Both the position numbers and the translations under genes were made by a program. A stretch of 40,110 nt of DNA from an uncultured Oligoflexus sp. GTDB lineage: Bacteria; Bdellovibrionota_B; Oligoflexia; Oligoflexales; Oligoflexaceae. The DNA lies in NCBI GenBank assembly GCA_964236955.1, contig CAXSGP010000039.1, positions 1 to 40,110 on the forward strand, read 5' to 3'. The notes beneath the pieces were generated by a model, which saw nothing but the letters and a program-made list of their open reading frames with translations, was not told the origin of the DNA and did not search any database. Positions 56 through 32,696 of the stretch are shown in pieces. Each line of letters opens with the position of its first letter. The first letter of the stretch is position 1.

Positions 56-1950
56 GTGCGCCACGAGGCGCGCACTTGTCAGCGGGAGATAGACCCGTCG
101 GGAAAGTGGCGACCCACCACACCCGTATATAGGTTTGGAGCCATGGAGGTGACGATATGGTTTAAGCGTAACCAATGAGAGATACGAAGCCGCAATCCGC
201 AAGGATGAAGCGATTGAGCCTCGACATAAAGCATCCGGAGTGGCTGCCAGGCTTGAAAACCTGATGCCGCTACATCGCAATTACCGACATGGGCATGGAG
301 ATTGTGGCACTCCCGGGGTCATAGAGCGTGGCGTAGTATCACAGGCAAGTGCGTGAACGTGGGATATCTCGTGGCCTCTTCAGGACGAAGTACTGGCAAA
401 CAAGTCTAAACGCGAGAATGCCAGGATGGGTTCTACACGAGAAGTCAGATGGGGCATATTACTCCGAGTATGGGAAAGCCATATACATGGGGAAGGCCTC
501 TAGGTTGAATCGCCCTCAAAGAGGAAACGTTATGGGGCCAACAGAGCACCAATTCTCGACGAAAACGAAATTAGAGAGGATAACTTGGTTGTCCAGACGC
601 GATCCCATAAAGAAGTTTGATTGCCTCATGCATCTCTTCAATATGGAATCGCTTACGGCATGTTACCACGAGTTGGACGGGAGAAAGGCTGTCGGTAGCG
701 ATCGTGTGAGCAAGGAGGACTATGGACAAGCGTTAAGTGAGAACATCGAAAGGCTAGTGCCTAGAATGAAAGAGATGGCCTATCGACCGGGTCCTGTACG
801 AGAAGTACTGATACCAAAGGAAGGTCAGGCCGGATCTTATCGCCCTCTTGGAATAGCTAATTTCGAGGACAAAATGGTGCAAAAGATGACATCGAAGATA
901 CTTGAGAGCATTTATGAGCCGATATTTATGGGCTGTTCTTATGGATTCAGACCTGGACGAAGCTGCCATGATGCGATACGAGATCTTAGTAATTATCTTT
1001 ATCGTCATGAAGTTGAATCGATAATTGATGTGGACTTAGCAAATTTCTTCGGGACCATCCGTCCGATGGTGGTAGATGAAATCTTGCGGAAGAAAGTCGG
1101 CGATAGCCGATTCCTACGATACATCCAGCGACTTTTCAAAGCTGGAGTATTGAAAGATGGTGAGCTAACAATGAGCGATGAAGGTGTGCCTCAGGGTTCG
1201 CCCGCAAGTCCCATTATCGCTAATATCGTTGCGCACGAAGTACTAGATGTATGGTTCGATAAAATCGTCAAAGCCCACTGTCGTGGCCGCGTTGAGATAT
1301 TTCGATACTGTGATGATCTGGTTATCTGCTGCCAGTATGCGACGGACGCATTAAGAGTGCATAAATCACTTGGTCTGCGACTGAAGAAATATGGATTGAA
1401 ATTGAATGAAGAAAAGACACGTCTGATCCGCTTCTCCAAGGGGAATATGAAAAGAGGCGAGGCACAGGAGAGTTTCGATTTTCTTGGCTTCACTTTCTAC
1501 CTGGGTAAATCGCGCAAAGGAAGCATCATTCCTAAGCACAAAACCAGTTGTAAACGCCTTAGGAGCAAGTTAAAGCGAGTCAAAGAATGGGTCCGGGATC
1601 ATCGCAGTAAAATGCGACTCCCTGAACTATGGGCGATATTCTGCTCAAAACTTAGGGGGCACGTCGCCTACTATGGGGTATCGTTCAATCAAGAAAGCGT
1701 GGGAAACTTTATCAAAGAATCGATTCGTATTGTCTTCAAATGGTTGAATCGCCGTGGAGGAAGGAAACGAATTTCCTGGGATAAATTCCAGCTGTTTCTA
1801 AACCGAAATCCACCGCCAGCAAATATAGTCCATCACAAACTTTTCACGATACAATCAAGCCAATGATTCAATCTTAAGCCCGTTGCCTTAATAGGGCACG
1901 GCGGGTTTGAACGGGGGGTGCGTTTAGGAGAACTAGCGCATCTACCCTCT
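56..1950 (+). mobile_element. Group II intron (ribozyme plus RT/maturase ORF), endonuclease-less, probably bacterial class E-like
   Basis: 5' GUGCG at 56. EBS1 UGAAAA (254-259) sits in a CAGG/CCUG-closed loop and is complementary to the 5' exon TTTTCA (50-55). Domain V has the AGC triad (1877-1879) and an AC bulge. Domain VI has a bulged A in CUACCC. Both boundaries are confirmed by reconstitution of the IS ATG. Confidence 0.95.
532..1866 (+). CDS. ltrA: Group II intron reverse transcriptase/maturase
   Basis: RT motifs RPLGI, SYGFRPGRS, GVPQGS, RYCDD and FDFLGF, then an X/thumb domain, with no HNH. The frame is open from 349, but ATG 532 follows a GAGGA RBS at 521-525. Confidence 0.93.
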   Translation: MGPTEHQFSTKTKLERITWLSRRDPIKKFDCLMHLFNMESLTACYHELDGRKAVGSDRVSKEDYGQALSENIERLVPRMKEMAYRPGPVREVLIPKEGQAGSYRPLGIANFEDKMVQKMTSKILESIYEPIFMGCSYGFRPGRSCHDAIRDLSNYLYRHEVESIIDVDLANFFGTIRPMVVDEILRKKVGDSRFLRYIQRLFKAGVLKDGELTMSDEGVPQGSPASPIIANIVAHEVLDVWFDKIVKAHCRGRVEIFRYCDDLVICCQYATDALRVHKSLGLRLKKYGLKLNEEKTRLIRFSKGNMKRGEAQESFDFLGFTFYLGKSRKGSIIPKHKTSCKRLRSKLKRVKEWVRDHRSKMRLPELWAIFCSKLRGHVAYYGVSFNQESVGNFIKESIRIVFKWLNRRGGRKRISWDKFQLFLNRNPPPANIVHHKLFTIQSSQ

Positions 1951-3387: not shown

Positions 3388-4206
3388 TCACATCTGGTCA
3401 GCATTTCTCGAATTATCCGTCCAAGGAAACCATTCAGGAATCTTTCCCGATATCAGAAGAATTCCCAGGATGACAAATGGAATACTCAAGAGCTGCCCCA
3501 TATTCAGGAGCATATTGCTTTCGAACGAAACTTGGTTTTCTTTCGTGAATTCGATTAGAATTCTGCTCAGAAATATCCACGAGAGCATTAAACCTATCAG
3601 TTGCCCTCTGGCCACACTTGATCTTTTGAAATAGAATCGATAGAGAATACCGGTCAGCACGAAATAACTTATCGCTTCGTAAAGCATGGATGGATGCCTA
3701 GGAATGTTATCATGATTTTAAGTGAAAATAATTGCCCAAGGAAGATCTGATGGATGCCCAAGAATTTCGGAGTTGAAAAAGTTTCCTATTCTTATGCAAC
3801 CTGCTGTGAAAGCTACTCCGATGGAAAGTCTGTCAGCGAGCCACAGATAACTCAGGTCCTGATGTTTCCTATGATAGATCCATACGGCAAGCAACACTCC
3901 TATGGCTCCTCCATGACTTGCCAATCCACCTTGCCAAACAAATAGTATGCTCAGAGGATTCTGGAGATACTCTAGAGGAGCATAGAACAGACAATGCCCC
4001 AATCGGGCACCGATTATCGTCCCGATAACAATATGCGTAAGAAGCGAAGAAAGATCCTCGGTCGATCGACCTTCTTTTTGAAATATTCTCTGTGTTATTG
4101 AATAGCCAACCAAAAAGCCTAGGGCAAACATCAGCCCATACCATCGTGGGCCAAACGAGCCGATTTTAAAGATCTCCTTTTGAAAATCCCAAACAAAGTG
4201 ATTCAT
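3388..4206 (-). pseudogene. lgt: Prolipoprotein diacylglyceryl transferase with an in-frame TAA at 3718-3720
   Basis: Lgt motifs RWYGL, GARLGHCLFY, GGLASHGG, RIGNFFNSE and PRHPSMLYEA. Both halves are in the same frame: WAIIFT*NHDNIPRHPSMLYEA. Confidence 0.88.
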
Positions 4207-5175: not shown

Positions 5176-6630
5176 TTATCTTACTTTCACCATTTTTCTC
5201 CCAGTTCGAGCTACACATACACCGTTTCTGATGATGAACGCTTCAACCCAGTGGGTCCCACGAAAACTCGTGCTTTCCCAACGGATAGTTGGAGCGTTCT
5301 TCTCTCCATCTATGAAATCTCCCCGAAGTTCATTGACGCTCGCTGCTTCCTGCCCGCTATTGACAACTTGCCATTTAACGTCGAAAGTCCCAGGTACGTT
5401 CGTTGATACTCTGAATTGAATGTGGGTCTTTTTGCCAATTGGACGGTCAGTAAGGGCGCCGATATTTTTATGGCTATATTTTCCAGGGTGAAGCGTCGCG
5501 GAAATAGCCGCTTTGTACTGCGTAGCTATCGGCCAAAGGGGGGCTTGACAATGATGCGTTGACGCTAAGGCAGGCACCAAAGACAACGGATTCGCCGGTA
5601 AACTTTTTTGCAGACGTTCCGTAAGAACTTCCGCCTTCCTCACGATACCTAATCCCATCATCTGCTCTAGCATTATCTTGGCGCCGAACAAGTCTTTCGC
5701 GGCGAACATTGCGGTAAAGTCAGTTTTCGCTTTCTCTAGCCATAGGAAGATGTCCTTACGTCTTTCGGGGTACTGATTCCACTTGTCTGCGAAATTTTCG
5801 CCCTCATCGGCAGGGTTTTGTACGATATATTTGCCGTCTTTTACCTGAATGAAAACCTCCATTCCATTCAGTATGCCAAGTAACGATGGCTGGAGATCGT
5901 CTTGATTTTGATAGGCCCAAGCGGCCAGCGTCGTGATAATAATTGACACCGGGCGTCGCTCGCACTCGTTGGCAAAGAATACATCCCTATGTCTCTTTAA
6001 AATCTGCACAACTCGTTGAAGGGGAGTTTTTACTTGCCAATCGGGAAGTTCGGCTACTTCCACGCTAATGGATTTGGCAAACGCCGCTCTTTTTTCTAGG
6101 AGCACTATTCTCATGCGATCTTTAAACCAGTCAGCATATTTAATCGGATTGCTGTATTGCCAGTGTCGAAGTTCCTTGTCCGTCAGCGAGATTCCTGTGG
6201 GCAAATTTTCTTCGTTAGGTATTGCTGGAAGAACGTCCATGTGCAACTGATCTGTGAAATTTATTCGCCAGCAACGACGACTTTCAACAACCTTCCCTTT
6301 GAGATCATCGTCAGATTTTAATCGATCACCAACTCTCTTTTTAAGTTCGGCCTGAGTGATAGACGTTTTCTGGATGTCAAGCTCGCAAACCAAATCGATA
6401 TCGTACTCGTCCTTATCGCTCAAAGGTTTTACTACCGTACCCAATCGAAACGAACCTTGAGGATATATTTTTAAAGAGTTCGTAGTCAGCTTCGATTCTT
6501 CATCAGACAAGTGCTCTGCCATTTGAAGATATTTTAACTTTACGTCTTCGTGGAGTTCATCGGGGATGTCAAGAGCTTCGGCAACGGATTTCAAAAGACT
6601 CTCGATATCGGAACGAGCTGTTCTAAACAT
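5176..6630 (-). CDS. CBASS cGAS/DncV-like nucleotidyltransferase (CD-NTase) with a C-terminal AGS-C domain
   Basis: QGSFRLGT...YDIDL...DVLP NTase core, followed by LKRHRD, SIIITTLAA and ENFADKW. The C-terminal KWQVVNSG..A..LRGDF..WEST.F.G.HWVEAF matches AGS-C. Confidence 0.92.
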   Translation of the reverse strand: MFRTARSDIESLLKSVAEALDIPDELHEDVKLKYLQMAEHLSDEESKLTTNSLKIYPQGSFRLGTVVKPLSDKDEYDIDLVCELDIQKTSITQAELKKRVGDRLKSDDDLKGKVVESRRCWRINFTDQLHMDVLPAIPNEENLPTGISLTDKELRHWQYSNPIKYADWFKDRMRIVLLEKRAAFAKSISVEVAELPDWQVKTPLQRVVQILKRHRDVFFANECERRPVSIIITTLAAWAYQNQDDLQPSLLGILNGMEVFIQVKDGKYIVQNPADEGENFADKWNQYPERRKDIFLWLEKAKTDFTAMFAAKDLFGAKIMLEQMMGLGIVRKAEVLTERLQKSLPANPLSLVPALASTHHCQAPLWPIATQYKAAISATLHPGKYSHKNIGALTDRPIGKKTHIQFRVSTNVPGTFDVKWQVVNSGQEAASVNELRGDFIDGEKNAPTIRWESTSFRGTHWVEAFIIRNGVCVARTGRKMVKVR

Positions 6631-6636
6631 ATTTTC

Positions 6637-7590
6637 TCAACTATGTATCGGTGTATAGATGCTTGCGCGATGGCCGCAGAATTTTGCTTTGAAAGTCGGT
6701 GCGAAATTCCTGCTGTGAAAAGCACCTTTGGCTAACAAATCATCGGTTTTTGAGATGCCATCAAGTGTAAAAGTTCCATGCGCGACCTTCGGATCGAGTC
6801 GTTCAAATCTCTCTTCGCCAAGGAAAAACTTCGACTGGTTTGCAGCTCCTCGACTTTGACCTCGTAAAATCACGCTTACGCCCTCTTCTTTCCAATGCCA
6901 CTTTCCGCCACGAGTTAGAGAACTCGCTCTTTCGGAAATTTCATCAGAAGTTCCTAAACTGCAAATTGATATTTTATCGAGCGGAACCAATAAAGTCCCT
7001 ATGGCTTCGACTAATGCAACCATCGACGGGTTGTTAGCCCATACGCCCCCATCGACGAGGCGTGCCTTATCAACTTCAGTGCAACTCGGAAAATAAGAAG
7101 GGGCGGAACTTGTCGCCAATGCTGCCTTCCAAATCGGAACTCTATAATCTCGTGCTAGTCGCTCATGGTGAGGTGTACGAAATATATAAACGTCGTCATC
7201 GGTCAGTGAATAGGAGGGGATTACGACACGTTTTTGAAGATCTGCAATACGTTTATCGCCAAAGCATTCCTTTAGAGCATCTGAAAGCGGTTCAGAGGAA
7301 AATTTATTACCAAAATATCCTTTGAATGAACTCTTGCGCCGCTTAAATATCTTTGGACCGTTATTCACGTAAAAATTTACTATTTCTCGTGGTCTGATGC
7401 CGTTCGCGAGAGCGAGCGCAATGATTCCTCCTGTCGAAGTCCCTGCTATGAGATCGAAATGATCACTAACATTGATTTTGAGGTCTTCTTCTAGGTTGGC
7501 GAGGATCGCGGCTGACATGAGACCTTTGATCCCGCCCCCGTCAAGAGACAGAATTTGAAACTTCGGAGTTGAGTTTTCCAAGATAAGCAC
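6637..7590 (-). CDS. CBASS patatin-like phospholipase effector (CapV-like)
   Basis: LSLDGGGIKG, GTSTG and DGGVWANNP motifs; ends 6 bp upstream of the CD-NTase. Confidence 0.92.
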   Translation of the reverse strand: MLILENSTPKFQILSLDGGGIKGLMSAAILANLEEDLKINVSDHFDLIAGTSTGGIIALALANGIRPREIVNFYVNNGPKIFKRRKSSFKGYFGNKFSSEPLSDALKECFGDKRIADLQKRVVIPSYSLTDDDVYIFRTPHHERLARDYRVPIWKAALATSSAPSYFPSCTEVDKARLVDGGVWANNPSMVALVEAIGTLLVPLDKISICSLGTSDEISERASSLTRGGKWHWKEEGVSVILRGQSRGAANQSKFFLGEERFERLDPKVAHGTFTLDGISKTDDLLAKGAFHSRNFAPTFKAKFCGHRASIYTPIHS

Positions 7591-8039: not shown

Positions 8040-8050
8040 ATTCCAGACAC

Positions 8051-8077
8051 AAAAAAAGGAACCTAAGTTCCTTTTTT
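8051..8077. terminator. Intrinsic (bidirectional-type) terminator after tRNA-Leu
   Basis: AAAAAAA-GGAAC-CTAA-GTTCC-TTTTTT, 10 bp past the tRNA discriminator. Confidence 0.8.
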
Positions 8078-8086
8078 AGTAGAAAG

Positions 8087-8438
8087 TACCTCGCGCCAGA
8101 CTCGAACTGGCACACCTTGCGGCAATGGATTTTGACGCTTTGCGGACTATATCATCACCCTACTACCGTTTCCGATATGAGGGGCCGGGCGCTTTTTCAC
8201 TGAGGCATTACTCCCAGCTAATTCCTGTAGTTTAAGCCATCTCGCGACAGCACAGGTAGTCTCTGAACCTTCCGCATCTGCGGCTTGGCTGCTGATTGTT
8301 ACGTCAATAACTTCCCAGCAATTCACCCGATTTCATCATCTCAAATTGCTCTGAGAGTGGACTCGTTGTTTTTTTCTGCGTCTCTTGCAAGACCTTCAGA
8401 CACTTTATCCATCGTGTCTACCATTCCACCAGCGAGGC
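8087..8438 (-). tRNA. tRNA-Leu(CAA), intron-containing; exon 1 is 8438-8407 and exon 2 is 8135-8087
   Basis: The joined exons fold as acceptor GCCUCGC/GCGAGGU, D arm GUGGAAUGGUAGACAC, anticodon arm AUGGA-UUCAAAA-UCCAU, long variable arm, T arm GCCAG-UUCGAGU-CUGGC and A73. CCA is not encoded. Confidence 0.95.
8136..8406 (-). ncRNA. Group I self-splicing intron (271 nt, no homing endonuclease, with P7.1/P7.2; IA-like)
   Basis: Core elements P GAAUUGCUGGGAA, Q AAUCAGCAG, R GUUCAGAGACUA and S GAUAUAGUCC; P3 UCGGGU/GCCCGG. IGS GUCCA (8362-8358) pairs with exon UGGAU, giving U·G at the splice site. Terminal G at 8136. Confidence 0.95.
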
Positions 8439-8632
8439 ATTCTTATGTTTAAATCGATAACTTTTGCCCCTGGGGAGCATCGGTTAGCAACTAAAAACCA
8501 AAAGCCATGTTTTCCTAATATCACCAGGCATCTTAAGACTGAAAATCCAAATTGGAAAAAGCGTCCTAAGGGTATCCAGCAAATGAGTCTGAAAGTCCTG
8601 GACTGACTCGATTTTTCGCGGGGACTCGGCCC

Positions 8633-32203: not shown

Positions 32204-32367
32204 TTACCGTCACTCAGTCAGCGTTGAGGTCTCATCAGCGTCGCGCGCGAGTCTAACCCGGAAGGTCCTAGGTCAGTGCAGGCAAGCAAGAGAGCCTTAA
32301 AGCTAAGGAGTGCAGCACGGAACAGGTAAATTAAGACACAAAGGAGCAGCCGCAAGCAGAAAATCAC

Positions 32368-32469
32368 TTCGCACTTCCTACGCTGGTATGAACCAGTTCA
32401 GGTACTAGAGTTGGATGACTGAGCTCCTGGGCAGATTCATCCTCTCAGCCTTGCGGCACCCCTGGCGAA
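32368..32469 (-). promoter_or_regulatory. TPP riboswitch
   Basis: GGGGUGCC-GCAA-GGCUGAGA...ACCUGAACUGGUUCAUACCAGCGUAGGAAG upstream of thiC. Confidence 0.96.
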
Positions 32470-32696
32470 ACTGGGAGAGTCTTAGCACATTTTGGATAAG
32501 AATGAAATCCTTGAATCCTGGGAATACTGAGGCGAAACTGCCGACGAGAGAGACTGGGTATTCTCTTGCTTCAGGAATGGCGGATGCCGATCCAGATTCT
32601 TTAAAAGTTGTTGTTCCGGAATAAAAAGACCCAAAGTCGGTCGAGCGCGAAGCCAGGCCTGATTTGAGTCTTTCTTTTCATGCGGCCAAGACCGTA

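Follow-up and report, generated by a model that had tools for sequence, protein, structure and literature searches.

The window analysed here, a stretch of 40,110 nucleotides (nt) from contig CAXSGP010000039.1 of an uncultured Oligoflexus species (assembly GCA_964236955.1), carries on its minus strand a tRNA-Leu(CAA) gene that is interrupted by a group I intron of 271 nt (8406-8136), located between nt 32 and 33 of the tRNA. When introns are allowed, ARAGORN places a tRNA-Leu(caa) at c[8086,8438] and assigns to it an intron of 271 nt at position 33, and the spliced sequence is likewise called tRNA-Leu(caa), with U|UCAAAA as the anticodon loop after splicing; the sequences on either side of the intron together make up a type II tRNA. 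By default, ARAGORN reports no tRNA in the window. The Rfam model Intron_gpI (RF00028) matches positions 8138-8399 of the minus strand with 48.5 bits (E 3.5e-11) at a gathering score of 50, and a scan at the gathering threshold does not report the intron, for which a laxer setting is needed; the same model gives 50.9-60.7 bits for four homologues from the same genus and 67 bits for one distant homologue.

Both ends of the intron are fixed, because relatives carry intron-free alleles of the gene (G060, G066, G071 and G063 from the same genus, and G028), in which query positions 1-34 abut 306-36x, and because one of these alleles, that of G060, is syntenic with the window and has both flanks in common with it (79.5% identity over 440 nt downstream and 71% over 1558 nt upstream). 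The interval 8136..8406, which a preliminary description made from the sequence alone had assigned to the intron, is exact according to both ARAGORN and the intron-free alleles. The explanation that I consider probable is that a working group I intron with a phage-type (IA-like) core is located at 32|33 of tRNA-Leu(CAA), and that it is the reduced variant, carried by the Oligoflexus lineage, of a wide intron family at exactly this site.

Architecture and relatives of the intron

The elements of the intron follow each other in standard order (P1-P2-P3-P4-P5-P6/P6a-P7-P7.1-P7.2-P3'-P8-J8/7-P7'-P9.0-omegaG; Table 1). Covariation was scored in eight distinct close relatives of the Oligoflexus type, namely the window itself, four genome sequences, whose records are titled Oligoflexus, Oligoflexaceae or 'Proteobacteria bacterium', and three metagenome contigs. 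Here 98.5% of 600 cells are paired, versus 34-40% when the partners are slid, and 14 of the 75 pairs changed on both sides, including both pairs of P9.0 (AU4/GC4 and CG7/UA1), three pairs in P5, three in P7.2 and two of the five pairs of an inner hairpin in L1. The core helices P3-P4-P6-P7-P8, with the P3/P7 pseudoknot, are each paired to 97.5-100%, P7.1 is paired to 100%, and P8 varies in length, being short in three of the eight. In a wider alignment of 49 distinct rows, P1 (UGGAU/GUCCA) has the U.G pair at the splice site in 49/49 rows, and its pair 13:116 covaries (GC26/CG13/UA10).

At the 3' end, the P7' strand UAGUC is followed by C-GC-AAA-GC-G and then by the exon (UCAAAA); the intron terminates in ...GCAAAGCG at 8136, with the terminal omegaG present and the end set by the intron-free alleles. 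The tail between P7' and omegaG measures 8 nt in the window and 8-11 nt across all eight close relatives, none of which has a P9. The preliminary description, which had noticed that only a P9.0 of 2 base pairs (bp) with a 3-nt loop remains and had proposed to look for a consistent absence of P9 in homologues, was thus correct for the Oligoflexus type (8/8), although 50 of 65 members of the wider family described below do have a P9. The assignment to the group I introns is kept in spite of the missing P9, as the catalytic core is complete. At the other end, the internal guide GUCCA starts 44 nt into the intron, and within this stretch are GUCUU-GCAA-GAGAC and an A-rich run that ends in AACAACGA. 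The final GA of this linker could pair with UC of the 3' exon to form a P10 of 2 bp, and across a family alignment (A2) this putative P10 comprises 2-3 bp only.

Table 1. Positions of the intron-split tRNA gene, the parts of its intron and an adjoining palindrome in the window
Feature	Position	Strand	Evidence or remark
tRNA-Leu(CAA) gene, intron-split	8086..8438	-	5' exon 8438-8407, 3' exon 8135-8086; ARAGORN with introns allowed
Group I intron, 271 nt	8136..8406	-	Rfam RF00028; presence/absence against syntenic G060 allele; helix covariation
5'-exon D-arm AGACAC (D-loop end and 3' strand of D-stem)	8414..8419	-	partner of GUGUCU
P1 5' strand UGGAT (anticodon-stem 5' strand and U32)	8407..8411	-	5' splice site after 8407
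Intron motif GUGUCU (family consensus GYGUCU), pairs with exon D-arm	8398..8403	-	covariation; minimum free energy fold
L1 hairpin (L1b) GUCUU-GCAA-GAGAC	8380..8393	-	stem kept through UC/GA to CU/AG changes
A-rich linker GCAGAAAAAAACAACGA	8363..8379	-	alignment A2: A-rich run in all rows, invariant G next-to-last
Internal guide GUCCA (P1 3' strand)	8358..8362	-	49-row covariation alignment
P2 UCUCAGA-GCAA-UUUGAGA	8339..8356	-	2 pairs changed on both sides, 98.2% paired
Short P5 GUUAU-UGAC-GUAAC, no tetraloop receptor	8298..8311	-	3 pairs changed on both sides
P7.1 (GCGA loop) and P7.2, between P7 5' strand and P3'	8200..8256	-	covariation, helices 11-13
P8, outer CCCU/AGGG, long form with GAAA loop	8158..8183	-	helix 14
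P7 3' strand UAGUC; partner GACUA at 8257-8261	8145..8149	-	invariant, 100% paired
P9.0 mini-hairpin GC-AAA-GC, then omegaG (8136); no P9	8136..8143	-	helix 15
Inverted repeat and T-run just 3' of tRNA gene, terminator-like	8050..8079	-	direct reading of sequence

The strands of P4 and P6 (GAAUUGCUGG ... AUCAGCAGCCAAG) recur without a mismatch in at least 124 introns on phage contigs. Many of these introns also have a short P5, most keep a P9 capped by a GNRA loop, and their P5 loops are diverse. P7.1 and P7.2 define subgroup IA, and as in T4 td and Twort orf142, which are phage-type introns of that subgroup, they are located between P7 and P3' in the window's intron. Judged by these two helices and by the likeness to phage introns, the core appears to be phage-type and subgroup IA-like. 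A tRNA-specific intron pattern found no match in viral contigs.

A different comparison is offered by the introns of subgroup IC3, for example those of cyanobacterial and plastid tRNA-Leu(UAA) and of Azoarcus tRNA-Ile(CAU), which are also hosted by a tRNA anticodon loop, likewise recruit P1 from the 5' strand of the anticodon stem, and are small and without an open reading frame (ORF). These introns are not known to have P7.1 and P7.2, and they have L2-P8 and L9-P5 tetraloop-receptor pairs, the L9-P5 pair being present in Azoarcus. In contrast, the intron of the window has P7.1 and P7.2, has neither P9 with its L9 nor the receptor in P5, hence no L9-P5 pair, and has an added pairing with the D-arm of the exon. 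It is also inserted at 32|33, versus after nt 34 or 37 in the classical IC3 tRNA introns.

The four classical bacterial tRNA introns are assigned to IC3, and 17 new tRNA/position settings beyond these four are given in the text portions available of Williams 2020 (10.1101/2020.01.27.920355). The introns catalogued there likewise interrupt the anticodon loop of bacterial tRNAs, with U(-1) and omegaG; in the same numbering, the window's intron would be 'Leu.1Ug' (U/a...g/UCAAAA), a setting that may be listed in Table 1 or the supplement of that paper. The available text does not contain the string Leu.1Ug, and has nothing on P9, L1 or exon pairing. The literature searched, with that Table 1 and supplement outside the coverage, yielded no paper that describes a group I intron inserted at this tRNA site, or the loss of its P9. 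A review, in the part available, lists P7.1 and P7.2 among the features that sort group I introns into classes.

In order to collect the family, a pattern consisting of J8/7, P7', a gap of 4-34 nt, omegaG and the 3' exon was used, which had 60 matches among genome contigs and 76 among metagenome contigs. Among these 136 loci and the window's own, 60 were not parsed as an intron-split tRNA-Leu(CAA), being truncated contigs or chance matches, and 68 distinct introns were parsed, from which three mis-parsed ones (L085, L128 and L151) were dropped. The resulting 65 distinct introns share the same tRNA site and come, by record title, mostly from marine Gammaproteobacteria (Cellvibrionales, Alteromonadales, Pseudoalteromonas, Colwellia and others). 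An ordinary P9, in which a stem of about 7 bp with a bulged A is capped mostly by GAAA and sometimes by GUAA or a similar loop, is present in 50 of them. It is absent from 15, which are the eight of the Oligoflexus type, six gammaproteobacterial introns (L034, L047, L072, L073, L080 and L134) and the metagenomic L148. A search of 401 gammaproteobacterial genomes returned further cases in tRNA-Leu(CAA) only, among them a 16th P9-less intron, present as two identical copies 557 kb apart on contig C1 of the gammaproteobacterial genome G256 (L300 and L301; 1071109-1071149 and 1627781-1627821); the identity of these copies continues through about 100 nt upstream of the split tRNA gene. The window's own order also includes a more distant member of the family (G001, identical to L087), with a P9 and with an A-rich L1 of 118 nt that lacks the hairpin.

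A probable helix between the intron and the D-arm of its host tRNA

The most interesting new point of this study is a covarying helix that joins exon and intron. Only a few nt past the 5' splice site, 59 of the 65 members have the motif GYGUCU, which is complementary to AGACRC in the 5' exon. The helix measures 6 bp, and across the 49-row alignment 99% of its cells are paired; one of its pairs is AU in 40 rows and GC in nine, and another is CG in 48 and UG in one. Among the 58 motif-bearing rows, the exon sequence AGACGC goes with GCGUCU in 9/9 cases, and AGACAC or AUACAC goes with GU at that place in 49/49. On the best tree the two bases co-change four times, and a single change is enough for none of the 200 bootstrap trees. 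The helix is also formed in the minimum free energy fold of the single sequence.

The four strands occur in the order AGACAC - UGGAU - GUGUCU - GUCCA, by which the exon-intron helix interleaves with P1 in the topology of an H-type pseudoknot; the first loop is 1-2 nt long, the last loop is A-rich, and each helix is supported separately. Pairing of GYGUCU with the D-arm, together with P1, would tether the 5' exon through this pseudoknot, and a plausible role would be retention of the 5' exon once the first step of splicing is over, with the body of the tRNA kept unfolded until splicing. The first 44 nt of the intron may then be seen as a 5' module found family-wide, consisting of GYGUCU, an optional hairpin, the A-rich linker and a short P10 guide. 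The preliminary description had seen in these 44 nt a P9-like hairpin with a tail and had overlooked the exon-pairing element, and the hairpin itself is not a relocated P9, as discussed below. The literature searched contains no description of exon D-arm pairing by a group I intron.

Loss of P9 and the hairpin in L1

In the P9-bearing members, P5 carries CUAAG...UAUG or variants of it, which I take to be the 11-nt GAAA receptor. In all 15 P9-less members, P5 is a stem of 3-5 bp with a loop that reads (U)UGAC, UAGAC or CGAC. From these sequences, the P9 hairpin and its receptor in P5 appear to have been lost together in the reduced variant. A tree of the core columns, from which L1, P5 and the tail were excluded (64 rows, with L069 dropped), needs four changes for the P9-less state, and well-supported branches force at least two. 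A single origin of the P9 loss is not tenable, as the corresponding single clade is rejected (approximately unbiased (AU) test, p 0.022), which leaves convergence or exchange of modules. The variable arm of the tRNA was considered as a stand-in for P9, as it ends in a GCAA loop here, and was dismissed because its loop is UUCG or of the UUAA type in other P9-less members. The 3' splice site would be defined by what remains, that is, by omegaG, by a 2-bp P9.0 with a loop of 3-6 nt and by a P10 of 2-3 bp.

Engineered mini-ribozymes derived from sunY and td also combine the absence of P9 with an intact P3-P8 core. The same combination is found in the Prasinoderma intron Pr.rnl.1, for which the available text of PMC3873408 uses the words 'very unusual', while calling P9 'essential'. 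Unlike Pr.rnl.1 and the mini-ribozymes, the introns described here are at least 16 natural, cis-spliced tRNA introns that occur beside P9-bearing sisters at the same site, and their loss of P9 is coupled to the loss of the P5 receptor and to a hairpin at the 5' end.

This hairpin, L1b, is closed by GCAA in four of the eight close relatives, by GAAA in three and by CAAAA in one. What the preliminary description had seen of it holds in part, as the inner hairpin is real and mostly of the GNRA kind (7/8), and the covariation that it proposed to look for is present in the two inner pairs counted above; the outer stem UCUG/CAGA, however, is intact in only 3/8, and its UCU belongs to the conserved exon pairing instead. 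Hairpin and normal P9 occur together in seven members of the family (L049, L060, L068, L089, L157, L160 and L164), with hairpin stems of 4-5 bp and loops that are GAAA in five, AAAA in one and UAUA in one. With both elements coexisting in these seven introns of the same tRNA site, the hairpin arose before P9 disappeared, and it does not represent a relocated P9. Its frame (GYGUCUGAAG - hairpin - CWGAAAAA...GA - guide) is identical in members with and without P9.

Two further observations concern L1. The sequences flanking the hairpin on the minus strand, GAAG (8394-8397) and CWGA (8376-8379), could by eye form tandem sheared G.A pairs, which would make the hairpin longer and let it stack upon the helix of exon and intron. 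A second small hairpin is seen between the 5' splice site and GYGUCU, in the first 12-13 nt of three of the eight Oligoflexus-type introns (L043, L099 and L123, with GCC-GUAA-GGC, GCC-GCGA-GGC and GCCC-UCG-GGC among them), and many P9-bearing gammaproteobacterial members, such as L037, have GC-GAAA-GC at the same spot; L1 thus has two separate insertion points.

Could the hairpin have taken over the work of P9? Docking of its GNRA loop on P5, in place of the L9-P5 clamp, had been suggested at the outset, and it is a possibility that I regard as tentative and on balance unlikely. In the 64-row tree set, the hairpin is present in 15/15 P9-less members versus 7/49 P9-bearing rows, its stems have 4-5 bp beside a P9 but 5-10 bp among Oligoflexus-type introns and 3-17 bp among the other P9-less members, and seven of the eight Oligoflexus-type hairpins have a GNRA loop. 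The short P5 of the P9-less members moreover resembles the short P5 of phage introns with a GNRA-capped P9, and a short P5 could act as a helical GNRA receptor (GNRA-helix docking). However, the hairpin is already GAAA-capped where it coexists with P9 in seven relatives, which implies another role there; the seven P9-less members outside the Oligoflexus type have loops that are not GNRA (UCACAC, UAUAU, ACAUAG and others); and the classical receptor in P5 was lost along with P9. Nor does the type of loop track P5, as no link between the two was found by eye in alignment A3, where L083 (GCAA) and L099 (GAAA) have the same P5, and the independent contrasts number just two, if well-supported, to four. 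Docking aside, the hairpin is longer in every P9-less member, and it may supply stability that makes P9 dispensable.

An arrangement of its own is seen in L080, a P9-less intron from a metagenome-assembled genome of the Alteromonadaceae, in which the L1 hairpin contains CCUAAG...AUAGG, presumably close to the 11-nt GAAA receptor, and the tail reads C-AU-GAAA-AU-G. A contact between the loop of this mini-P9 and the L1 hairpin is conceivable; its sister L134 is without the motif.

More doubtful is a second substitute for P9, in which the P5 loop (U)UGAC pairs with GUCAA, that is, with omegaG and the first four nt of the 3' exon, including the anticodon CAA, and so positions the 3' splice site. 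In its favour, the loop holds on to GAC in each of the 16 P9-less introns even though the P5 stem covaries, a constancy that is missing from the diverse P5 loops of phage introns with the same core and an equally short P5; a conserved GUC, outside P7' and the exon-pairing motif, is found only at the 3' splice site, and the putative P10 is only 2-3 bp long. On the other hand, omegaG is needed in the G-binding site at the second step, which limits this pairing to 2-4 bp at most, some of the loops fit poorly (UGAC as a tetraloop on a 3-bp stem, CGAC and UAGAC), and the conservation of the loop could be due to shared ancestry or exchange of modules. In addition, the exon is invariant in the family, so that no covariation speaks for this pairing.

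The pairings can be combined in a joint model, to which I would likewise give little credence. P1 would be locked in the H-type pseudoknot with the D-arm of the tRNA, with the A-rich strand lying along the helix, and the 5' exon would be gripped by 11-12 bp instead of 5-6. The P9-less lineages would use the lengthened L1 hairpin and the codon-like (U)UGAC loop on the short P5, paired with omegaG-UCAA, for positioning of the 3' splice site and closure of the domain. If true, this would be a natural alternative architecture of the group I ribozyme, one that reads its host tRNA.

Splicing, host genome and significance

The intron looks functional, because its helices covary and because no intron-free tRNA-Leu(CAA) was found in the genome; splicing activity is presumed from these features of the sequence. 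In the genome, which is 86% complete, ARAGORN finds 38 intron-free tRNAs, none of which is Leu(CAA) or Leu(UAA), and each of the two UUR-reading tRNA-Leu genes is split by a group I intron. The other one of them, tRNA-Leu(UAA), has an intron of 256 nt after U34 (G000 contig C23:45534-45876, at about 1473-1815 of L002; Rfam 41.5 bits). Its position is that of the cyanobacterial and plastid intron, and the relatives of the genome are titled Oligoflexus. An additional tRNA-Leu(taa) with i(30,215), reported by ARAGORN on contig C1, has no group I match in its region and is considered a false call. The genome thus seems to be without both of its UUR-reading leucine tRNAs because intron-split genes escape the default finders, and for annotation this means a gene that is missed both by default tRNA finders and by Rfam at the gathering threshold.

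Several observations speak against a working, phage-type intron that pairs with its exon in the way described. With respect to the exon-intron helix, well-supported branches taken alone force only one co-change of the pair, only one of the six pairs is fully compensatory, 6/65 members are without the GYGUCU motif, and a U.U or U.C mismatch is present at one pair in five distinct rows (three after collapsing to 49); that P1 and this helix would form simultaneously is a topological argument and not an observation. The subgroup label is derived from P7.1/P7.2 and the likeness to phage introns alone, and the Rfam score of the window's intron lies slightly under the gathering score. The association of the hairpin with the loss of P9 is not significant, the two to four independent contrasts being too few for a test. 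Finally, among 22 sequencing runs listed, six are recorded as RNA, and contigs of relatives (85-99% identity) from four of these RNA libraries run unspliced over both splice sites (X18, 8084-8221, at the 3' site, and X8, 8216-8461, at the 5' site), which could reflect carry-over of DNA. A spliced joint was not seen in these contigs, which neither prove nor exclude splicing, and loose ends at 8135 in RNA-library sequences turned out to be tRNA-Leu of other organisms.

Alternatively, the intron may be decaying and dead to splicing, with P9 simply deleted in a pseudogene. This would agree with the statement that P9 is essential (PMC3873408, available text) and with the slightly low Rfam score, and an intron-free copy may be hidden in the unassembled part of the genome. 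I consider it very unlikely, however, as eight distinct sequences keep all helices by compensatory change, the 2-bp P9.0 included, and as the reduced form is found again in clusters that stay apart in the core tree (the AU test given above). No intron-free tRNA-Leu(CAA) accompanies the intron in its own genome by ARAGORN, and BLAST finds no other match in four other intron-bearing genomes of the genus, with at most seven candidates scored per genome. A copy that is truly decaying is found elsewhere in the same genome and looks different, with mutations in the acceptor stem, the D-stem, P7' and L7.1. This second copy is located on the minus strand of G000 contig C118 (10273-10534 and 11079-11261; 1501-1762 and 2307-2489 of L027). 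It is permuted: its 3' part, which runs from P7 to the 3' exon and the terminator and has 92% identity, comes first, and the 5' part, from the 5' exon to J8/7 and with 89% identity, follows about 545 nt downstream; the two parts overlap by 85 nt. It adjoins a hipBA-like pair, and the contig ends 1.7 kb beyond.

The remaining suggestion of the preliminary description, that the layout arose from an intron circle reopened elsewhere, so that P9 would now stand at the 5' side of a ribozyme permuted in nature, is contradicted by the data and is the least probable of all, since the GNRA hairpin near the 5' end beside the missing P9 is its sole sign in the window and the broken C118 copy, with its 3' part upstream of the 5' part, is another, decaying locus, whereas all core elements are in standard order, with no 3' element upstream of P1 or the guide, seven same-site relatives possess both hairpin and P9, the hairpin is flanked by the family motifs GYGUCUGAAG ... 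CWGAAAAA whether or not P9 is present, it differs from the relatives' P9 in sequence and length by direct reading, and comparison with the syntenic intron-free allele shows a clean insertion or deletion of the intron. Unlike permuted intron-exon constructs and trans-split group I introns (for trans-splicing, PMC3873408, available text), the intron of the window is colinear and arranged in cis. A working group I intron that belongs, in reduced form, to the tRNA-Leu(CAA) family is thus retained as the probable explanation.

As for the surroundings, the terminator-like palindrome next to the tRNA gene gives spurious matches to miRNA models in the Rfam scan. Directly downstream of the gene, at 5176-7590 of the minus strand, lies a defence pair like that of cyclic-oligonucleotide-based antiphage signalling systems (CBASS), made up of a SMODS/AGS_C nucleotidyltransferase (484 aa) and a patatin phospholipase (317 aa). 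The window further contains domains D1-D4 of a group II intron at 89-328 (+) (RF02005, 99.9 bits), followed by a reverse-transcriptase ORF of 505 aa at 349-1866 (+), a 162-aa fragment of lgt at 3718-4206, which covers profile positions 2-149 of 240, and a thiamine pyrophosphate riboswitch at 32357-32473 (-) (RF00059, 58.4 bits).

P9 and the L9-P5 contact are treated as near-obligatory in group I introns. The family at tRNA-Leu(CAA) 32|33 offers a natural series at one tRNA site, whose sister introns vary with respect to P9, the P5 receptor and the L1 hairpin. This series shows that P9 and its receptor can be lost jointly, and its members are ready-made constructs for examining why P9 can go. 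The pairing with the D-arm, if confirmed, would be a means by which a tRNA intron holds its 5' exon and keeps the tRNA unfolded until splicing.

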